DNA from: a virus
IMG/VR virus record: IMGVR_UViG_3300035670_000065
Coordinates: 47,993 to 111,992 of that record
Strand: one strand, 5' to 3'
Length of the DNA: 64,000 bases
Shown: positions 38,720-60,513 of the stretch, piece after piece
How positions within the stretch are numbered: position 1 is the first letter of the stretch
Layout of the letters: every line of letters starts with the position of its first letter
Notes under the pieces: model-generated
Seen by the model: the letters and a program-made list of their open reading frames with translations, nothing else
Databases searched by the model: none
Told to the model about the DNA's origin: nothing
Made by a program: the position numbers and the translations under genes

Positions 38720-39805
38720 TCAATTTTTTTCATCCCCATAAGCTAGAGATAATATTTCTGATTTAGTGGCTAAGGACCAGCCTTTAGTTGACTTTTGATC
38801 TCCTTTAATTACTAGAGAAAGGGACTGTTTTAGCAGGCTATGAGTTGCTGCGAATGCAGATACTCCTCTTTCGTATATTCTATAGAGTTTATTGTCCGGA
38901 GATTTAATCGTGGCTATTTGCTTAGCAGGCTGTAGATACCAACCCTCATATATCTTTAAATACCCATTTAGAAGCTGCTTGACCCTAGTCTGTTCTAGGT
39001 TGTGAGACTGGCAGAATTGCTTAACATCTAGAACCTCTGTCTTTTTGCCATCTTTATATAGGTAGATAGATTCTATAAACTTATGTCTTTTCCGGTCTAT
39101 TCTATCTATGACTAGGAACGCTTTAGGATGTTCCTCTCTTAGATAGTGATGGGACCTACCTGCTAGAATGGATCTAATAGTATCTTCAGCAACTCCCGTG
39201 GATTCTTCAATCTCTCTAACTAACAATTTAGGGTCTTGAAGAAGCTCTAGTACCTTTAGGATCTGTTCTTCTGTGAATTTTGCTCTCTGATGTGAGTGTC
39301 CTTGTTTACGACGAGAAGTCTGCAATATCTTTAGGAACTCTTCGGGGAACTCCTCCTGAATCCAGGTATGAGTTCTGCCTGCTTTAATATTATATAGCTG
39401 CCCTTCACTAATACCTGTTATTTTCTCTATATCTTTAAGAGATAATTCCGGATCTTGCAAAAGAGGTAGAGCCTGTATAATCTGTTCTTTACTGTATTTA
39501 GCTCTAGGGTGCTCTGTACCTCCTCTAAATATATCTACTTCCGCAATATTGAGACCTTGATTAATAGAGTTTAACCTATCAATCCAGTAAGCTTCTCTAG
39601 AGTTGAGATCAATTATCCTACATTCTTCTATAATTTCTAAATTGGGTAGCCCACACATTTCATACGCTTCATTCAACTTAGGGTTATAATGCCCCTGTTC
39701 AAAAGAATACTTATGTGCTTTAAACCTTGCTTCTATATTTCTAGACTGCCCAACATAGGGCCAATCTTCCAACCCTTCAAACACTAACTTGTAAATACCT
39801 ATCAT
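38720..39805 (-). CDS. GIY-YIG homing endonuclease with repeated HTH-like domains
   Basis: IGIYKL...YVGQSRNIEARF; duplicated H.RAK(Y/F)..EQI...L.LLQDP.L repeat. Confidence 0.85.
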   Translation of the reverse strand: MIGIYKLVFEGLEDWPYVGQSRNIEARFKAHKYSFEQGHYNPKLNEAYEMCGLPNLEIIEECRIIDLNSREAYWIDRLNSINQGLNIAEVDIFRGGTEHPRAKYSKEQIIQALPLLQDPELSLKDIEKITGISEGQLYNIKAGRTHTWIQEEFPEEFLKILQTSRRKQGHSHQRAKFTEEQILKVLELLQDPKLLVREIEESTGVAEDTIRSILAGRSHHYLREEHPKAFLVIDRIDRKRHKFIESIYLYKDGKKTEVLDVKQFCQSHNLEQTRVKQLLNGYLKIYEGWYLQPAKQIATIKSPDNKLYRIYERGVSAFAATHSLLKQSLSLVIKGDQKSTKGWSLATKSEILSLAYGDEKN

Positions 39806-47671: not shown

Positions 47672-47941
47672 GTTAAAACAGCGTATAATATCTTTATTGA
47701 ATGGGAGAACACTATGAACGAAACGACACTAGAAATTGTGAGACTTTTGAATGATGTTGGCCTGTTCCCCGGAGAGACTGTATTAGTAGAGATCAATGAC
47801 CTGGTTCAATCCACGCTTGATGAAGCGTACAGTGATGGATACCTCGAAGCACAAGCTGAGTTTGATGTACCGGAAGAATACGAGTACGACTACTAAAAAT
47901 TCAGACTTGACCCTAAACTGAAATTGCTTTATAATAGTTAT

Positions 47942-49210
47942 ATACACTGAGGAAAACGAATAGCGATAATTGACGAATTATCTACTCGGGCGCAAACGGC
48001 GGGTGACGCGTCCTGATATAATCTGATCTCCGCTGCGGACAGTTAGCTACTGACTCCAAAATTGATCCCTAAAGTGTATACATATGGTGGTAGAGACAAC
48101 GAAACTCTCCAACGCTTCTAGGTAAGTGCTTGCAGAACGCTACGGCGTCAATATTCTGCATAAACCTAGTACCCTACTGATGAGCTAGTGAAACTCTAGC
48201 GAAACGGCAGACAATCTAGCGAATAGGTGCGGAGAGGCTTCAATCCAATCCCCTACATAGCGGTCTGTTCGTATAGGTAAAATCAAGAAGTGTGGAACTG
48301 TCAAGCCACTAGCGGAGAAGTCAACGCTCTCCAATATACTGCTAGCGCTAGCTATGACGCAGTTGACCCAAGCTGTAGGGGGACTATAATTCTAAATGAC
48401 CCGTAATAAAGCATTATTGGATATCTACATAGTGCTTACGGAACAATATAGAATCTTGGTAAAACGGGTTACTTTAGACGACCTGGGAACAGAATAAGTC
48501 CACAACTTAGACCGTGTTAAGTATAAAATACGTTTAGTGGTGGTAGTGCGAGGCTATTGTTAAACGGATTGCTAAGATCCGGCCACTTAAATAAATCCAG
48601 CGCGAGTGCAGCGTTCCAACGATAGAAAGCATCAACGGTAATAGTTGGATTATCTGGTACTAAGGTGAGTATGTAAGGGAGCCAGTAGAAGTCTGATGAA
48701 CGAGGGTCGCCTCACCCCCTGCATAAAGGCCGATTGAGAATCGACCACCTAAAAGTCCAAGGACACAAGTGACTATAAATATAGTGTTAGTGCGACATTG
48801 CCCTGTTTAAGCACTTAAATCCTAGAAACTGGCAAAGGGGTATCCGCCCTATGTATAACTGGATAGGCCGTGCCTACAAGCCGAATGTAACTGGAGACTG
48901 CCTAGGCCACCCGTGCCTCGATCGCAAACGGTAGGGATACAGGCCAACCCCGGAGTGAAGAGTTTTCCACTAACTTGGTTTCTTCTTCAATCTACCTCCG
49001 CCTCAACGGTAAATCAGCTGTAGATAGCTCGTAAATCCGTATGAAAGATATTGTTAGCGGTGTTTCCTCGATTCTTCCGTAAAAGTAACGAAGTGTAGCC
49101 TGACGCTGGCTATGAGTCCCGTAAAGACAGTACGTTGTGATATGAGCCTGACCAAATCACAGAAATCTCGTGGTTAGGACTCAAAGCCTCCTGTGTAAGG
49201 AGGCTTTGTT
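47942..49210 (+). ncRNA. Candidate giant structured non-coding RNA (about 1.27 kb)
   Basis: No ORF of 60 aa or more in any frame from 47897 to 49304; promoter 47907-47935; terminator 49183-49214; many hairpins. Confidence 0.6.
48170..48279 (+). ncRNA. Type I hammerhead ribozyme
   Basis: CTGATGA(48177)-GCTAG/CTAGC stem II-GAAA(48201)-stem III CGGCAGAC/GTCTGTTCG-GTA cleavage triplet (48271-48273)-TAGG pairing with CCTA (stem I). Confidence 0.8.
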
Positions 49211-49214
49211 TTCT
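49183..49214 (+). terminator. Intrinsic terminator
   Basis: AAAGCCTCCT/AGGAGGCTTT hairpin plus T-rich tail. Confidence 0.7.
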
Positions 49215-49725
49215 GTAGGTTCTTGTAGGTGGACATAGGTCGTTGAGATACACGACTGAGAATGTCGAATCCTTTAGAATCTACAGAAAACAAAAGGAGA
49301 GTATATGATCCGAGAATTTCAGCAAACATTAGAATCACAACTAAAGACATTTGACCCTAGGGATGTAACGGATTTAGCACATTTCAAGTCCCTACGTTTC
49401 GACGGTAAGCAAGGCTGCCGTCGTTACATCGTTGAGCATCCGTTTCCGGATGTAATGTCGATGATGCTGCATAAGATTGCTGTAGCTTATCTAAAAGATA
49501 GTAAACAATATACTGCGTCAGAACTAGCGAGGTACTAAAATGAACCTAATAAACTGCGAAAACTGTGGAGTTGTTCTAAATAAGAAAGCGGTACACTTTG
49601 CACACGATATATGGAATGAAAACGGCGAATTAGACGAGGACTTTGGAACATATAGTTTCAAAGAGGAAATGATGGTTGCCTACGTCAGATGCCCTGTCTG
49701 TAACGAAAAAGTATTGGACGAATAA

Positions 49726-50475
49726 ATGTTAGTTAAACTTCTGTCAGACCTACACATTCATAATAACAACCCGTTCCGTTATACGGATCACGGAGAGTAT
49801 GTTTGCGTTCTAGCAGGAGATATTAGCGAAGGTATGCATGGTGTGGAGTGGGCGTTAGCTTGTATTCCAGACCACATTAAAGTGCTGTATGTTCCTGGGA
49901 ACCATGAGTACTATGGTCAGATTTACCAGGTGCTAAATGCACGTTTTGCTCACCATAATAAGAGAGGTACTCATGTAACTGTGCTGCAGGAGCAGTCTGT
50001 TACGATTGGTGACATTGAGTTTGTAGGCACGACCCTATGGTCAGACTTTGCGTTGTATGATAACCCTTCAAGGCACGCTATCTACTGGAAGAACGGCCTA
50101 AACGACTCCAGGTGGATTTGGCGGGAAGAAGGCGGTGGGATTGGCCCACAAGACTTCCTAGACTGGAATGCAAGGTCACTCGCGTTTCTGCGTTCAGTTG
50201 CAGAGACCCCCAAAGATAAGACAAGAGTTCTTATCACTCACTACTGTCCAGATCTTTCGGTGGCGCCCAGGTACCGAAACGATGAGCTAACCCCTGGTTT
50301 CGCTACGCATATCCCTGTGGAGACACATGAAACATTCGACTTCCATTTTCACGGCCATACCCATGATAGTATGAAATATGAGTACCCATTCGGTACTAAG
50401 GTATTCTGTAATCCTAAGGGTTACGGTATGGAGAACGTATCGGGATTTAATCAGGAGCTAGTACTGGATATTTAG
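49726..50475 (+). CDS. Metallophosphoesterase
   Basis: SDLH, AGDI, PGNHEYY, HGHTH. Confidence 0.88.
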   Translation: MLVKLLSDLHIHNNNPFRYTDHGEYVCVLAGDISEGMHGVEWALACIPDHIKVLYVPGNHEYYGQIYQVLNARFAHHNKRGTHVTVLQEQSVTIGDIEFVGTTLWSDFALYDNPSRHAIYWKNGLNDSRWIWREEGGGIGPQDFLDWNARSLAFLRSVAETPKDKTRVLITHYCPDLSVAPRYRNDELTPGFATHIPVETHETFDFHFHGHTHDSMKYEYPFGTKVFCNPKGYGMENVSGFNQELVLDI

Positions 50476-50488
50476 AAAAGGAGTCCTT

Positions 50489-51067
50489 ATGGAACCTAGA
50501 TCTAGCTACTACTACGATGGCAAAGTTTTCCGCCTTAGAAGCAAATGGAACAAAAGATTCAGATTATTTTTAATGTTAGTATGTTTTCTAGGATTAAGTG
50601 GATATTCTAAGGATATTTCTGATGGTGAAGTAGTACCACAGAAACACGCTTTAGAGTCTCACGTTCTAGAAGAAAATCCCAAAGTATCAATCAACGACGC
50701 AAAGAGTATAGTTAACGCAGTTATTAAATGGGGGACTGAGTTTAGTATCGACCCTAAATTGTTACTAGCTATAGCTAAAGTGGAAAGTAACTATAACAAA
50801 CACGCTATATCGCCTTCTGGTGCTTATGGACTAATGCAGGTTATTCCTGTGTGGCATAAAGATAAGATTAAGAAGGCTAAAGAAGAACTTGGAAATCCTG
50901 AGGTCTTCGATATTCACACTAATATATATCTAGGTGCTAGTGTGCTTAGAGAGTGTTATAACAAGAACCCTGGACTCAGTAAGGCGCTTTTGTGTTATGC
51001 TGGCCAAACGCCAGGGTATGATAAGAAAGTGTTAGCAGCATATAGGGCTTTAAAAATATTCACTTGA
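50489..51067 (+). CDS. Lytic transglycosylase (SLT domain) with a signal/TM segment
   Basis: LLAIAKVESNY...AIS.SGAYGLMQV...NIYLG...Y. Confidence 0.88.
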   Translation: MEPRSSYYYDGKVFRLRSKWNKRFRLFLMLVCFLGLSGYSKDISDGEVVPQKHALESHVLEENPKVSINDAKSIVNAVIKWGTEFSIDPKLLLAIAKVESNYNKHAISPSGAYGLMQVIPVWHKDKIKKAKEELGNPEVFDIHTNIYLGASVLRECYNKNPGLSKALLCYAGQTPGYDKKVLAAYRALKIFT

Positions 51068-52607: not shown

Positions 52608-54173
52608 ATGTCAAGACTAAATCAAAAAATTACACAACCTCAAGTTGAAATCGCTGTGTCTGCTAATGGAAACGTACAAGTTGCCAAAAGTGCAGCCCAG
52701 GTTTTCTTCGAGACCCTAGTGGGTCATATGTACGGAAAAGATCGCTTCTATACCTCTAACGAGGATATTTGTAAGCGTCTTAGCGTAGATATTAGCAAAC
52801 TGGTACGGGCTGGAAAGTCCGACTACGTTGCTAATGTAATTCTGTATGCTCGTGAACAGGCAATGATGCGGTCTATGCCTATTCTGGCTACAGTCTATTT
52901 TGCCAAAGCACTTCGTGAAACCGGAGTTGCCTTTCCACAACTGCGTCGTCTGGTATCTTCGGTCATCCAACGAGCTGATCAGATTACTGACACCTACGCA
53001 GTCGCCCTGGAGGTTTTCGGTGGAAAAAACAAAGTGCCGATGGCTCTCAAGCGTGGTGTAGCGGACGCAATGAACAAGTTTACCGAATACCATTTCGGTA
53101 AATATAACCGTGCAGCCGGTGTCACATTCAAAGATGTGGTGCGTATCGTACATCCAGAACCAAAGGATGAGAACCAAAGCGTCGTGTTCAAGAAAATTCT
53201 TGAAGATAACCTCGCTGTGCCATATACATGGGAAACTGAACTCTCCATGAACGGTCAACTTCCGAAAGAAGTTCAAAAGTCAAAGGCTCAAATTTGGGCT
53301 GAGCTCGTTAAATCCGGCAAACTCGGATATATGGCACTACTTCGCAACCTTCGTAACATTATTCAGTCAGGAGCTGACGTTACGGATGAGGTGGCGAAAC
53401 GGATTTCTGATCCAGAACAAGTCTCGCGTTCTAAGCAGCTTCCCTTCTCGTTCATCAAGGCTTTTGATGCCGTTAAGGATGCTCCCACTCAGTTGAAATG
53501 GGCGGTTAGTGAAGCTCTTGATGCATCCTGCGCGAATATTCCTTCGCTAGGTAAGAACGTGTGGATCATTGTCGATGGTTCCGGCTCTATGCTGGGTGGG
53601 CAGATGTACAGGGCTGCCCCTCTGTATGAGACGCTTGGAGATTCCCCGTTCCAGACCGCTGCCGTGTTCTGCGCGGCTCTGGTGAAATCTAGTAAGGAAG
53701 CGACTAATATCGCGGTTTCCATCTTTAGCGACAACGCTCAGATGGTTGATCTTAATCCTCGTGATACAGCTACGTCCATCGTGGACAAGCTCACGAAGAT
53801 GGTACAGGGTGGTGGAACTAATCTACAGGCAGCCCTGAATCTAAAATCCAAGCTAGGTTTCGAGCCAGATACAGTAGTAATCCTTTCAGACATGGAAGTA
53901 AACTCCTTGTCGACTGGGGATTCCAGCTATCGTGGTTATACTTATAACCATTACCGCGATTCTACTGTAGCAAACATCGCTAAGATGTTTGATAAGACCA
54001 CTCAAAAAGTGGCGGTAAACCTAGCTAGTGGTGTGTCGACACCTGTTCCAAAAGAACATGGATTTATCCAACTGGCAGGATTTAGTGAGCGAATCTTCGC
54101 CCTACTTCCTGAACTGCGGAATAGTGAGAAAACAGTCGAAAGATTGTTTAGTCAGCCGTTCCAGCCAGTTTAA
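52608..54173 (+). CDS. rsr: Ro60/Rsr-like TROVE plus vWA RNA-binding protein
   Basis: YARE...MRSMP, IQRAD, YHFGKYN, HPEP, YTWETELS, LGYMALLRNLRNI, SKQLPF; vWA MIDAS VDGSGSM, GGGTNL, ILSDM. Confidence 0.92.
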   Translation: MSRLNQKITQPQVEIAVSANGNVQVAKSAAQVFFETLVGHMYGKDRFYTSNEDICKRLSVDISKLVRAGKSDYVANVILYAREQAMMRSMPILATVYFAKALRETGVAFPQLRRLVSSVIQRADQITDTYAVALEVFGGKNKVPMALKRGVADAMNKFTEYHFGKYNRAAGVTFKDVVRIVHPEPKDENQSVVFKKILEDNLAVPYTWETELSMNGQLPKEVQKSKAQIWAELVKSGKLGYMALLRNLRNIIQSGADVTDEVAKRISDPEQVSRSKQLPFSFIKAFDAVKDAPTQLKWAVSEALDASCANIPSLGKNVWIIVDGSGSMLGGQMYRAAPLYETLGDSPFQTAAVFCAALVKSSKEATNIAVSIFSDNAQMVDLNPRDTATSIVDKLTKMVQGGGTNLQAALNLKSKLGFEPDTVVILSDMEVNSLSTGDSSYRGYTYNHYRDSTVANIAKMFDKTTQKVAVNLASGVSTPVPKEHGFIQLAGFSERIFALLPELRNSEKTVERLFSQPFQPV

Positions 54174-59254: not shown

Positions 59255-59900
59255 CTAAGGAGATTGTTATGCGAATGTAGATAACTTTACAGGAGTATAA
59301 TATGTCTAGAACTTTTAGAAAACAGCCATACACCTGGCGTAGTACAGATCCTTTGTTTGACTGGACGTGTTGCGAGGACGAGGTAGTATGGGAAGATGTA
59401 GAATATGCTTTTATTAACAGAGACTTTGGTCAGTGGTCACGTTACACTTACTATACTGTTAAGTACAAAGCAGATAGCAAAACAGGGAAGAGACTGTTAG
59501 CGCGTAGCAAGATGGACAAGGTTATTACCTTCAAAGAGCCAGGACCCTCGTGGTTTCGTAACCTTTTTGAAGAGCGTCCTCTGCGTCGTAATAGCAAACG
59601 TGAACTTCAGAAGTTCATGTACGATGAAGGCTACGAACCTATCATAGATTCTATCCCGCGCAAAAAGATTTACTGGACATGAACAGCTACACTCGATAAC
59701 CGATAAGAAGCCGGAGTTTCCGGAACTACTGGTGGAAGGCCGAGGAAGTAGGGCTGGCGTTGATTCAATCTCATTCATGTTCATCCTATTCAAGCTAGAA
59801 CAAAACGAGAACGGGATGCGAACCCTAGATATCGACAAAACTAGCCCCTGTCGCAAGGGAACGGTGGACTACCCTGATAAAGTGGCTGCCGTGAAACTAA

Positions 59901-60125
59901 TTCGGTGATGGCAAAGTAAAAGTATTCAAGACACGGGTTCGACTCCCGTCATTTCCAAGACTACGGGAATGTAACGGCTTCGATTGGGTATGACTAGCAA
60001 TGCCGGAGAATCGTCAGCTAAGACGTAAAAACAACGCATAATAAATGCAAACGATGAAAGATATAGCCTAGCTGCTTAAGTTAGGCGAAGGTTTCGGGAC
60101 TGTCCCTTCTTACCAATACAGTCCC
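59901..60125 (+). ncRNA. ssrA: Circularly permuted (two-piece) tmRNA, tag ANDERYSLAA
   Basis: T-arm plus 3' acceptor CATTTCC-A (59950-59957) precede 5' acceptor GGGAATG (59965-59971; G3-U70); tag ORF 60047-60079; 5' boundary approximate. Confidence 0.88.
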
Positions 60126-60513
60126 ATTTTGTTACTATCTTACTCGCCACTTAAGCTAATATATGCGGAGTTTCGTCGACAATAACCTTCCGCGGGTAAT
60201 CAGGAGCACCTGACTTGGGTAGGGTAGTATCAAAATATAAACGGAGTAAATATGGAAAAACTATTAGAGAAGTATGTTGAAAACGAAACTAAAATAGCTA
60301 CCATTAATGGACTCCTAATTGCAGAAGCAATGTGTGCTAGGAAGCTCCAAGAAGTTTACAGTAGAGATATTTTAGATATTATGGGCGACATTGCCGCAGC
60401 TATAGAGGACATTAAAAATGCTTAAGAAATTACTGAAATGGATTGTCACGTTAGAAAGTCCATCTCACAAAAGATTTGCAGAACTAATGTTTCTGACTAA
60501 AAAATAAACTAAT

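Follow-up and report, generated by a model that had tools for sequence, protein, structure and literature searches.

The tRNA regions of phages T4 and T5 give rise to stable RNAs that are not tRNAs, such as the T4 species 1 and 2, which are ~100-140 nt in length and are excised by host tRNA-processing enzymes. Among the least understood RNA classes are GOLLD, a family reportedly described by Weinberg et al. in 2009, and ROOL. The latter family was presented by Weinberg et al. (2017, PMC5737381), and cryo-electron microscopy (cryo-EM) has revealed that both form RNA-only cages (bioRxiv 10.1101/2024.12.08.627333). Hammerhead ribozymes that process phage and prophage transcripts are likewise known (Perreault et al. 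2011, PMC3088659). Here we describe a 1.27-kb stretch that probably encodes a large phage RNA of a new family, comparable in kind to GOLLD and ROOL. It lies on the + strand of a 64,000-nt window, i.e., the whole stretch of DNA that was analysed, which corresponds to bases 47993-111992 of the complete 111,992-bp virus genome IMGVR_UViG_3300035670_000065 from IMG/VR; all positions refer to the window unless another locus is named. On the basis of comparison with one full-length homologue, the IMG/VR locus L002, we lean towards reading 47942 to ~49214 (+) as a self-processed, multi-domain, stable noncoding phage RNA with products of ~332 and ~940 nt.

Noncoding status, selection and boundaries

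The region 47897-49304 (1408 nt) is devoid of open reading frames (ORFs) of 60 or more amino acids (aa) on both strands, the longest being 49 aa on the - strand and 38 aa on the + strand. This agrees with the preliminary description, which had reported such an absence over ~1.4 kb, and makes the region the largest gap of its kind in the genome, the other large gaps of which contain tRNAs or transfer-messenger RNA (tmRNA). Inspection of the alignment with L002 shows that mismatches lack codon periodicity (0.40 in the best phase, as opposed to 0.60 in the adjacent gene, with each of the 13 blocks in this test choosing its own phase), and that the indels, five of 1 nt and five of 2 nt in addition to longer ones, are mostly not multiples of three. 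Further, a 33-aa ORF at 48396 ends after five codons in L002, no ORF of at least 12 aa led by a Shine-Dalgarno sequence is conserved between the window and L002, and tblastn searches with all ORFs of 29 related loci recovered neither protein resemblance nor the trace of a decayed gene. The marks of a protein-coding gene or a cluster of small ORFs, namely codon periodicity, frame-preserving indels and conserved starts and stops, are hence missing from the stretch.

At the same time, the 5' 135 nt and the 3' 182 nt are respectively 93% and 84% identical between the window and L002, as against 72% for the neighbouring gene, in which ~50% of the third codon positions are mismatched. The high identity of the end blocks, together with the lack of a coding signal and the third-position divergence next door, shows purifying selection on the nucleotide sequence itself, and this selection, along with the compensatory base-pair changes detailed below, bears out the earlier claim of a noncoding RNA. 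These observations also bear on the notion that the stretch is non-functional DNA, whether as a gene that has decayed, as spacer or as a series of small protein genes that escaped annotation. Such a notion could draw on the occurrence of the stretch in two phage genomes only, on a folding energy at chance level and on the frequent lack of long ORFs in random sequence of the same composition. However, it has to contend with identical blocks of up to 42 bases and 93% identity in the face of ~50% neutral-site divergence, compensatory changes in helices, frame-breaking indels without codon periodicity or a kept small ORF, the absence of protein similarity to ORFs of the 29 related loci, and a conserved promoter and terminator; it is largely refuted and we regard it as extremely improbable.

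The transcript would start at ~47942, just downstream of a sigma-70-type promoter (Table 1), which belongs to the 14 + strand matches to the strong form of this pattern in the window. The promoter had been called perfect; it is indeed present, but is better termed near-perfect. Its L002 counterpart reads TTGATT-17-TATAAT (L002 6606-6634), and the two sequences are identical from ATACACTGAGGAAA onward. At the other end, the terminator noted earlier is confirmed as a hairpin at 49182-49208 with 11 bp, -22.6 kcal/mol and z = -5.5, and L002 has an equivalent of the same shape with another stem sequence (-23.8 kcal/mol, z = -5.8). The support thus extends to the earlier view of the stretch as a separate noncoding + strand transcription unit within a phage tRNA/tmRNA island. 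The internal direct repeat that was previously reported near 48857-48917 is also present in the sequence; its first copy is missing from L002 and is replaced in a variant from a sediment metatranscriptome library (X6). Beyond the terminator, a long AU-rich hairpin (49207-49292; L002:8000-8045) runs from the terminator U tail to just before the ribosome-binding site AAGGAGA of the gene at 49305. It is present in L002 with a different sequence and could act as an RNase III site or as a translation switch dependent on read-through.

Table 1. Features of the unit in window coordinates, with the basis of each assignment
Feature	Position	Strand	Basis and remarks
Sigma-70-type promoter TTGACC-17-TATAAT	47907..47935	+	11/12 consensus score; L002 counterpart
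Predicted 5' cleavage product, ~332 nt	47942..48273	+	Promoter and hammerhead site; whole ribozyme inside, predicted 2',3'-cyclic phosphate end
Hairpin, 7-bp stem, conserved GACG loop	47965..47982	+	Window/L002 comparison
42-nt block identical in L002	47983..48024	+	GGGCGC/GCGUCC helix, 14-nt loop
Type I hammerhead (predicted)	48173..48277	+	Sequence reading and descriptor
Hammerhead stem I, CCUA with UAGG	48173-76 with 48274-77	+	4 bp, open end formed by the flanks
Hammerhead core, CUGAUGA and GAA	48177-83; 48201-03	+	C3-U4-G5-A6-N7-G8-A9 and G12-A13-A14 present
Hammerhead stem II, GCUAG/CUAGC	48184-48200	+	5 bp, directly between the core strands
Hammerhead stem III	48204-12 with 48263-72	+	A15.1 at 48204; 9 bp, one bulged U, 50-nt branched insert
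Predicted self-cleavage site, between GUA and U	48273..48274	+	H17 position relative to core and stems
Predicted 3' cleavage product, ~940 nt	48274..49214	+	Hammerhead and terminator; predicted 5'-OH end
Sub-domain, closing helix UCA-AGA-GUGUG with CUAUA-UUC-UGA	48281..48399	+	RNAalifold; hairpins 48291-48308 and 48314-48332
Hairpin	48410..48436	+	Third lineage (X6 contig)
Variable central region	48470..48800	+	Poor L002 alignment; indels of 21, 31 and 45 nt
Internal direct repeat UAACUGGA...UAGGCC...CGUGCCU, twice	48857..48917	+	Read in the sequence
3' domain, 278 nt	48901..49178	+	Long-range closing helix 48901-03/49176-78 plus 48906-10/49170-74
Helices within the 3' domain	48951-62/48982-49000, 49006-09/49037-40, 49096-49112, 49135-49162	+	Window/L002 model
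Pseudoknot helix AUCUAC/GUAGAU	48990-95/49020-25	+	Crosses helix 48951-55/48996-49000
Candidate second pseudoknot stem (doubtful), CCUGACCA with UGGUUAGG	49147..49178	+	49147-54 with 49171-78
Intrinsic terminator	49182..49214	+	11-bp GC-rich stem, 5-nt loop, UUUGUUUUCU tail

The hammerhead and the conserved domains

The most concrete functional element of the stretch is a type I hammerhead whose activity is predicted from a complete motif. Stem III is formed by ACGG-CAGAC with GUCUG-U-UCGU and is followed by A48273 as H17, giving the A15.1-U16.1/H17 arrangement next to an intact catalytic core. The type I descriptor matches the genome at this site only, and a random 112-kb genome would be expected to give 0.003 hits. 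L002 has an identical core, a stem II that covaries to CUGAG/CUCAG, a stem III with one G.U pair changed to G-C, and a stem I, short and invariant, that extends to 5 bp (ACCUA/UAGGU). In both L002 and a more distant relative, L004, the three-way junction is the minimum free energy (MFE) fold of the hammerhead segment. A cut at the predicted site would leave mature products of ~332 and ~940 nt rather than one 1.27-kb RNA.

The same locus in L004 (L004:6553-6650, same as L033:1490-1590), situated between two phosphoesterase genes, contains only a promoter and a hammerhead fold of ~100 nt directly upstream of the metallophosphoesterase gene. This version has the core CCGAAGA (U4C), the stem I CGUCU/AGACG and the site GUC; a U4C hammerhead variant retains activity in vivo in a viroid (PMC3088659). 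As L004 has the hammerhead fold alone at this position, the hammerhead looks like the old core of the locus, with the large flanking domains belonging to the window/L002 lineage. Elsewhere, in its tRNA region, L004 has a canonical minimal type I hammerhead (L004:2737-2792; Rfam Hammerhead_1, 38.1 bits), which passes the Rfam threshold. Additionally, in a contig from a freshwater DNA run (X5) that covers 48174-48206, the 3' end of a tRNA (…GAGTTCGATTCTC…ACCA) is followed within a few bases by a near-identical hammerhead stem I, core and stem II, and then by unrelated sequence. The hammerhead module thus seems to move between contexts.

The arrangement in L004 also touches on the possibility that the stretch is chiefly a long cis-acting leader, in which read-through of the terminator would express the genes at 49305-51067 (coding for proteins of 77 aa and 61 aa, a metallophosphoesterase and a transglycosylase), with the hammerhead and terminator setting the level and the 5' end of the mRNA. 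In keeping with this, 49215-51063 has no promoter of the phage's usual type, the hairpin at 49207-49292 that connects the terminator tail to the next ribosome-binding site is kept in L002, and in L004 a promoter and a ~100-nt hammerhead-like fold directly precede the metallophosphoesterase gene. However, we consider this explanation decidedly unlikely: the terminator is a strong one, preserved through compensatory change, 1.27 kb of strongly conserved pseudoknotted domains far exceeds the needs of known leaders, and the downstream mRNA would retain 940 nt of leader after cleavage.

Beyond the hammerhead, comparison of the window with L002 and X6 points to several helices maintained by compensatory change. 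The hairpin at 47965-47982 reads GAUAAUU/AAUUAUC in the window and GCUUAAC/GUUAAGC in L002, with four of the seven pairs doubly changed and all kept, and the helix at 48092-48108 likewise shows a compensatory change. For the 5' domain as a whole, alifold on column-shuffled alignments gives z = -2.3 and, where 0.6 double changes are expected, finds 5, a count that 0/100 shuffles reach. Within the sub-domain following the predicted cleavage site, the hairpin 48314-18/48328-32 changes from GGAGA/UCUCC to GAGGA/UCCUC in L002 (two double changes). The 3' strand of the sub-domain includes a promoter-like TTGACC-16-TATAAT at 48363-48390, the spacing of which is lost in L002 (14 nt, TATAGT), so that the conservation here is as RNA. 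In the next hairpin (48410-48436) all four pairs changed in X6 are kept (A-U to G-C, C-G to U.G, A-U to G.U and U.G to U-A).

The 3' domain shows the strongest signal, with z = -4.15 and 11 double changes as compared to 5.0 in the shuffles, 0/100 of which reach 11; in these tests the minus strands and a coding control were weaker than the + strand domains. The 3' domain model comprises 49 pairs, every one of which persists in the window and in L002 through 5 double and 4 single changes, as opposed to 35-50% of pairs and 0-1 double changes in slid controls. Compensatory changes in L002 affect the helices 48951-62/48982-49000 and 49135-62, and the X6 variant swaps A48969/U48976 to U/A and changes C48988 to U with retention of a G.U pair. 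The pseudoknot helix at 48990-95/49020-25 becomes AUCUGA/UCAGAU in L002, where two adjacent double changes leave 6/6 pairs intact. The preliminary description had proposed a different 3' pseudoknot, one stem of which, GUGAU/AUCAC, stands and can be extended to 49135-49141/49156-49162, with one double and two single changes. Its second stem, CCUGACCA/UGGUUAGG, is doubtful: it forms 8 bp in the window, has a G.A mismatch in L002 and competes with the closing helix 48901-48910/49170-49178, which is intact in the window as well as in L002 and fits the 3' strand better.

Counting those long-range helices of at least 7 bp which are kept in both sequences gives 25, compared with 13.5 +/- 4.4 in shuffles, and none of them is longer than shuffles yield; covarying helices of 4 bp are not above shuffles in number. 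The pairs of the global MFE fold include 19 with double changes and 49 broken on the + strand, as compared to 10 and 47 on the - strand and 4-7 and 33-48 in a gene control, a result which is only suggestive. An end-to-end pairing (47951-47960/49205-49214) is kept in both sequences and is indistinguishable from chance, and 48124-32/48808-16 is a further long-range candidate. The helix earlier suggested between GAGGAAA (47949) and TTTCCTC (49063) is complementary in the window, but it falls away as its 3' partner is absent in L002.

L002 differs from the window largely by whole modules, its 5' part bearing two self-contained insertions, 1 and 2, of 113 and 109 nt. The second of these (L002:6984-7092), just 5' of the hammerhead, forms a three-way module with a closing 10-bp stem, has a tRNA T-arm-like GGUUCAAAUCC inside and is flanked by a direct repeat ATAAACC, as if inserted. 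This modularity could be taken to mean that the transcript is a polycistronic precursor of several small stable RNAs, like those from the T4 and T5 tRNA regions, with the hammerhead as one of several processing sites and no single large fold. The best-supported helices are in fact mostly local hairpins, relatives differ by whole modules of 113 and 109 nt (the latter with its own 10-bp stem), the central 330 nt are poorly conserved, no helix spanning the 5' and 3' pieces exceeds shuffles in length, the MFE z-scores are not significant, and a near-identical hammerhead core directly follows a tRNA in another freshwater contig. Nevertheless, the interior of the stretch has no tRNA-like ends or other recognisable processing signals, the genome has a single hammerhead, the 3' 278 nt constitute one closed pseudoknotted domain, conserved long-range helices outnumber those in shuffles about twofold (25 vs 13.5 +/- 4.4), and the whole unit has one promoter and one terminator. 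On balance, we hold a precursor of this type to be rather unlikely.

Under the favoured reading of a self-processed, multi-domain RNA, host RNA polymerase would initiate at the unit's own strong sigma-70-type promoter and stop at the strong intrinsic terminator, and the primary transcript would fold into several conserved domains. The embedded hammerhead would then make a single cut after A48273, separating a 5' piece of ~332 nt, which carries the ribozyme and a 2',3'-cyclic phosphate, from a 3' piece of ~940 nt with a 5'-OH, the 3' part of which would adopt the pseudoknotted 278-nt domain closed by a long-range helix. Cleavage might serve as a maturation step that provides a defined, non-phosphorylated 5' end resisting 5'-end-dependent decay. 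We conjecture a structural role in trans, in which the stable pieces would serve as scaffold, as decoy or in assembly; GOLLD and ROOL are suspected of acting in this way.

Opposing evidence, distribution and genomic setting

Several results weigh against this reading. First, the structures were derived from the same two full sequences that were used for covariation, and the covariation statistics are weak because there is one full-length homologue only. Second, by energy the single sequences fold no better than shuffles (MFE z = -0.20 for 47942-48273 and -0.72 for 48274-49214), as opposed to z = -2.1 for a control stretch containing tRNAs. The many hairpins pointed out earlier are accordingly not above chance by energy, and the structure draws its support only from comparison with relatives. 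Third, the hammerhead fold of the window lies 2 kcal/mol above its MFE alternative, L002 has a U.U at 10.1/11.1, and Rfam returns for the window only Hammerhead_3, below threshold at 16.2 bits where 48.5 are needed, likely because of the 50-nt insert in stem III; the block also lacks significant covariation, being nearly invariant. Fourth, the 5' domain offers the 3' strand of stem III and the cleavage nucleotide an alternative 9-bp pairing (48034-42/48265-73; UGCGGACAG with CUGUUCGUA), which could block stem III. The differences in L002 strengthen it (G.U to A-U and G.U to G-C), pairings of such length also occur in shuffles, and it may represent a conformational switch that blocks the ribozyme. 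Fifth, in 24 more distant relatives, 7 of them at least 90% complete, the 5' and 3' domains are absent as judged by blastn and two covariance models (R1, R2), which indicates that the RNA is lineage-restricted and dispensable for the phage group. Finally, presence in the RNA library X6 is a sign of expression and not proof of it.

In IMG/VR, 29 relatives of the flanking 173-aa phosphoesterase were recovered, and an ORF-free stretch that matches the present one accompanies only the closest of them, L002 (81% protein identity); by the same protein, at least 12 closer relatives (P0001-P0022, 70-92% identity) are present in ENA and Logan. A distant-mode blastn search of 50,697 phage records yielded no match to the RNA stretch, a scan of GTDB genome contigs found nothing, and four pattern scans of IMG/VR from different conserved blocks returned the L002 contig alone, apart from L048, which was rejected as a chance match lying within a 634-aa ORF. 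A metagenome scan with one 20-mer gave six chance matches in unrelated contigs; this 20-mer covers a site with a 1-nt insertion in the abundant environmental variant. Logan contigs from the source study (X2) include both the window type and the L002 type, and X5, from another study, contains 48146-48287 unchanged. X6, from a third study, has several diverged contigs over 47972-48077, 48379-48591 and 48876-49041, one of which runs on into insertion 1 of L002, and an 86-nt contig identical to the window over 47992-48077; its contigs are absent over 48084-48359, a gap in cover that carries no weight. Sixteen other runs with small word shares (X4, X7-X20) were given no weight as to habitat or expression. 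Within the window itself, paralogues or antisense targets of the RNA are limited to 12-15-mers at chance level.

PHROG families are matched by the portal, major head, terminase and tail proteins of the genome, and the portal is ~41% identical to those of T5-like phages of Pectobacterium, Vibrio and Yersinia, which makes the phage a distant, uncultured T5-like siphovirus. By Rfam scan and ARAGORN, the RNA island at 43-61.6 kb of the window comprises 20 tRNA genes and a two-piece tmRNA (21 tRNA/tmRNA genes); it also has a Ro60/TROVE gene and many small ORFs, all on the + strand, and every unit in it is preceded by a strong sigma-70-type promoter of one recurring form. These near-consensus + strand promoters follow (a/t)cTTGA(C/T)…17 nt…TATAATA (42839, 45414, 47661, 47907, 51064, 54215, 57870, 61581 and others), and several have in common an extended -35 motif, CTTGACCCTAAA. 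The permuted tmRNA (59860-60170) has the tag ANDERYSLAA and is of the same type as in most of the relatives' loci; its beta/alpha-proteobacterial type hints at the host group. The phage-encoded Ro60 (52608-54173) combines TROVE and vWA domains; related proteins of other large phages carry the annotation Ro-like RNA-binding protein. Outside the island, a 361-aa ORF on the - strand (38720-39805) has weak GIY-YIG and helix-turn-helix matches, and is a possible homing endonuclease. The flanking phosphoesterases were assigned to no specific RNA-repair family.

Comparison with known phage RNAs

Searches with Rfam 15 at E-values up to 10 gave nothing relevant for 47700-49400 or for L002:6500-8100. 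GOLLD, which also lacked a match at the gathering score, and ROOL can be set aside for both regions, and OLE, HEARO, group I/II introns, RNase P RNA, tmRNA and 6S for 47700-49400; ARAGORN placed no tRNA or tmRNA inside the stretch, and neither GOLLD nor ROOL was found in the loci of 11 relatives. The preliminary description had considered that the stretch could be a new large RNA class in a context resembling that of GOLLD and ROOL, which is a fair reading. In sum, the noncoding unit, its selection, the island context and the lack of a known Rfam family have held, whereas the 47949/49063 helix and energy-based structure have not, and the second pseudoknot stem is doubtful.

A third family of this kind, unrelated to the other two and larger, would establish the repeated origin of such RNAs in the tRNA islands of phages. 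Structural work would gain a construct boundary defined by a ribozyme, and a connection of the ends left by self-cleavage (5'-OH and cyclic phosphate) with RNA stability or RNA repair would become testable in a phage that has genes for tmRNA, Ro60 and phosphoesterases as well. Being confined to a single lineage, with modular gains and losses and a relative that has only a hammerhead-like fold at the locus, the RNA would further serve as a model case for the growth of large RNAs. A more ambitious proposal, of which we are doubtful, would place it first in a new class of ornate phage RNAs of giant size (1.3-1.4 kb), matured by the hammerhead into two pieces that remain associated via the candidate helices 47951-60/49205-14 and 48124-32/48808-16 and that form a higher-order RNA-only architecture as in GOLLD/ROOL. 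Were this the case, it would exceed all other such phage RNAs in size and be the first among them to contain a ribozyme.

Among described systems, the T4/T5 stable RNAs resemble the present one in that their genes lie between tRNA genes of large lytic phages and are co-transcribed with these, but the present unit measures 1.27 kb, is equipped with a promoter and a terminator of its own, and contains a predicted self-cleaving site. With the type I hammerhead (Rfam RF00163) it shares the complete catalytic core, three stems, an open stem I, a GUA triplet and the phage context, and differs in the 50-nt branched insert of stem III and a stem I of just 4-5 bp. Unlike the hammerheads of other phage transcripts, this one is located inside a large noncoding RNA and not between protein genes. 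ROOL is comparable in that it is large and ornate, occurs in phages and prophages close to tRNA genes and lacks a known protein partner, though the present RNA is more than twice its size and no shared motifs were seen. GOLLD likewise is a very large, structured, phage-encoded noncoding RNA, often neighbouring a tRNA island, a setting found here too, and has one conserved and one variable part, pseudoknots and sometimes tRNA-like pieces inside, for which the T-arm-like hairpin (GGUUCAAAUCC) in insertion 2 of L002 offers a parallel. It is, however, ~800 nt in length as against ~1.27 kb here, where a hammerhead is also present, and in GOLLD the 3' part is conserved and the 5' part less so, whereas the present RNA is conserved at both ends and variable in the centre.

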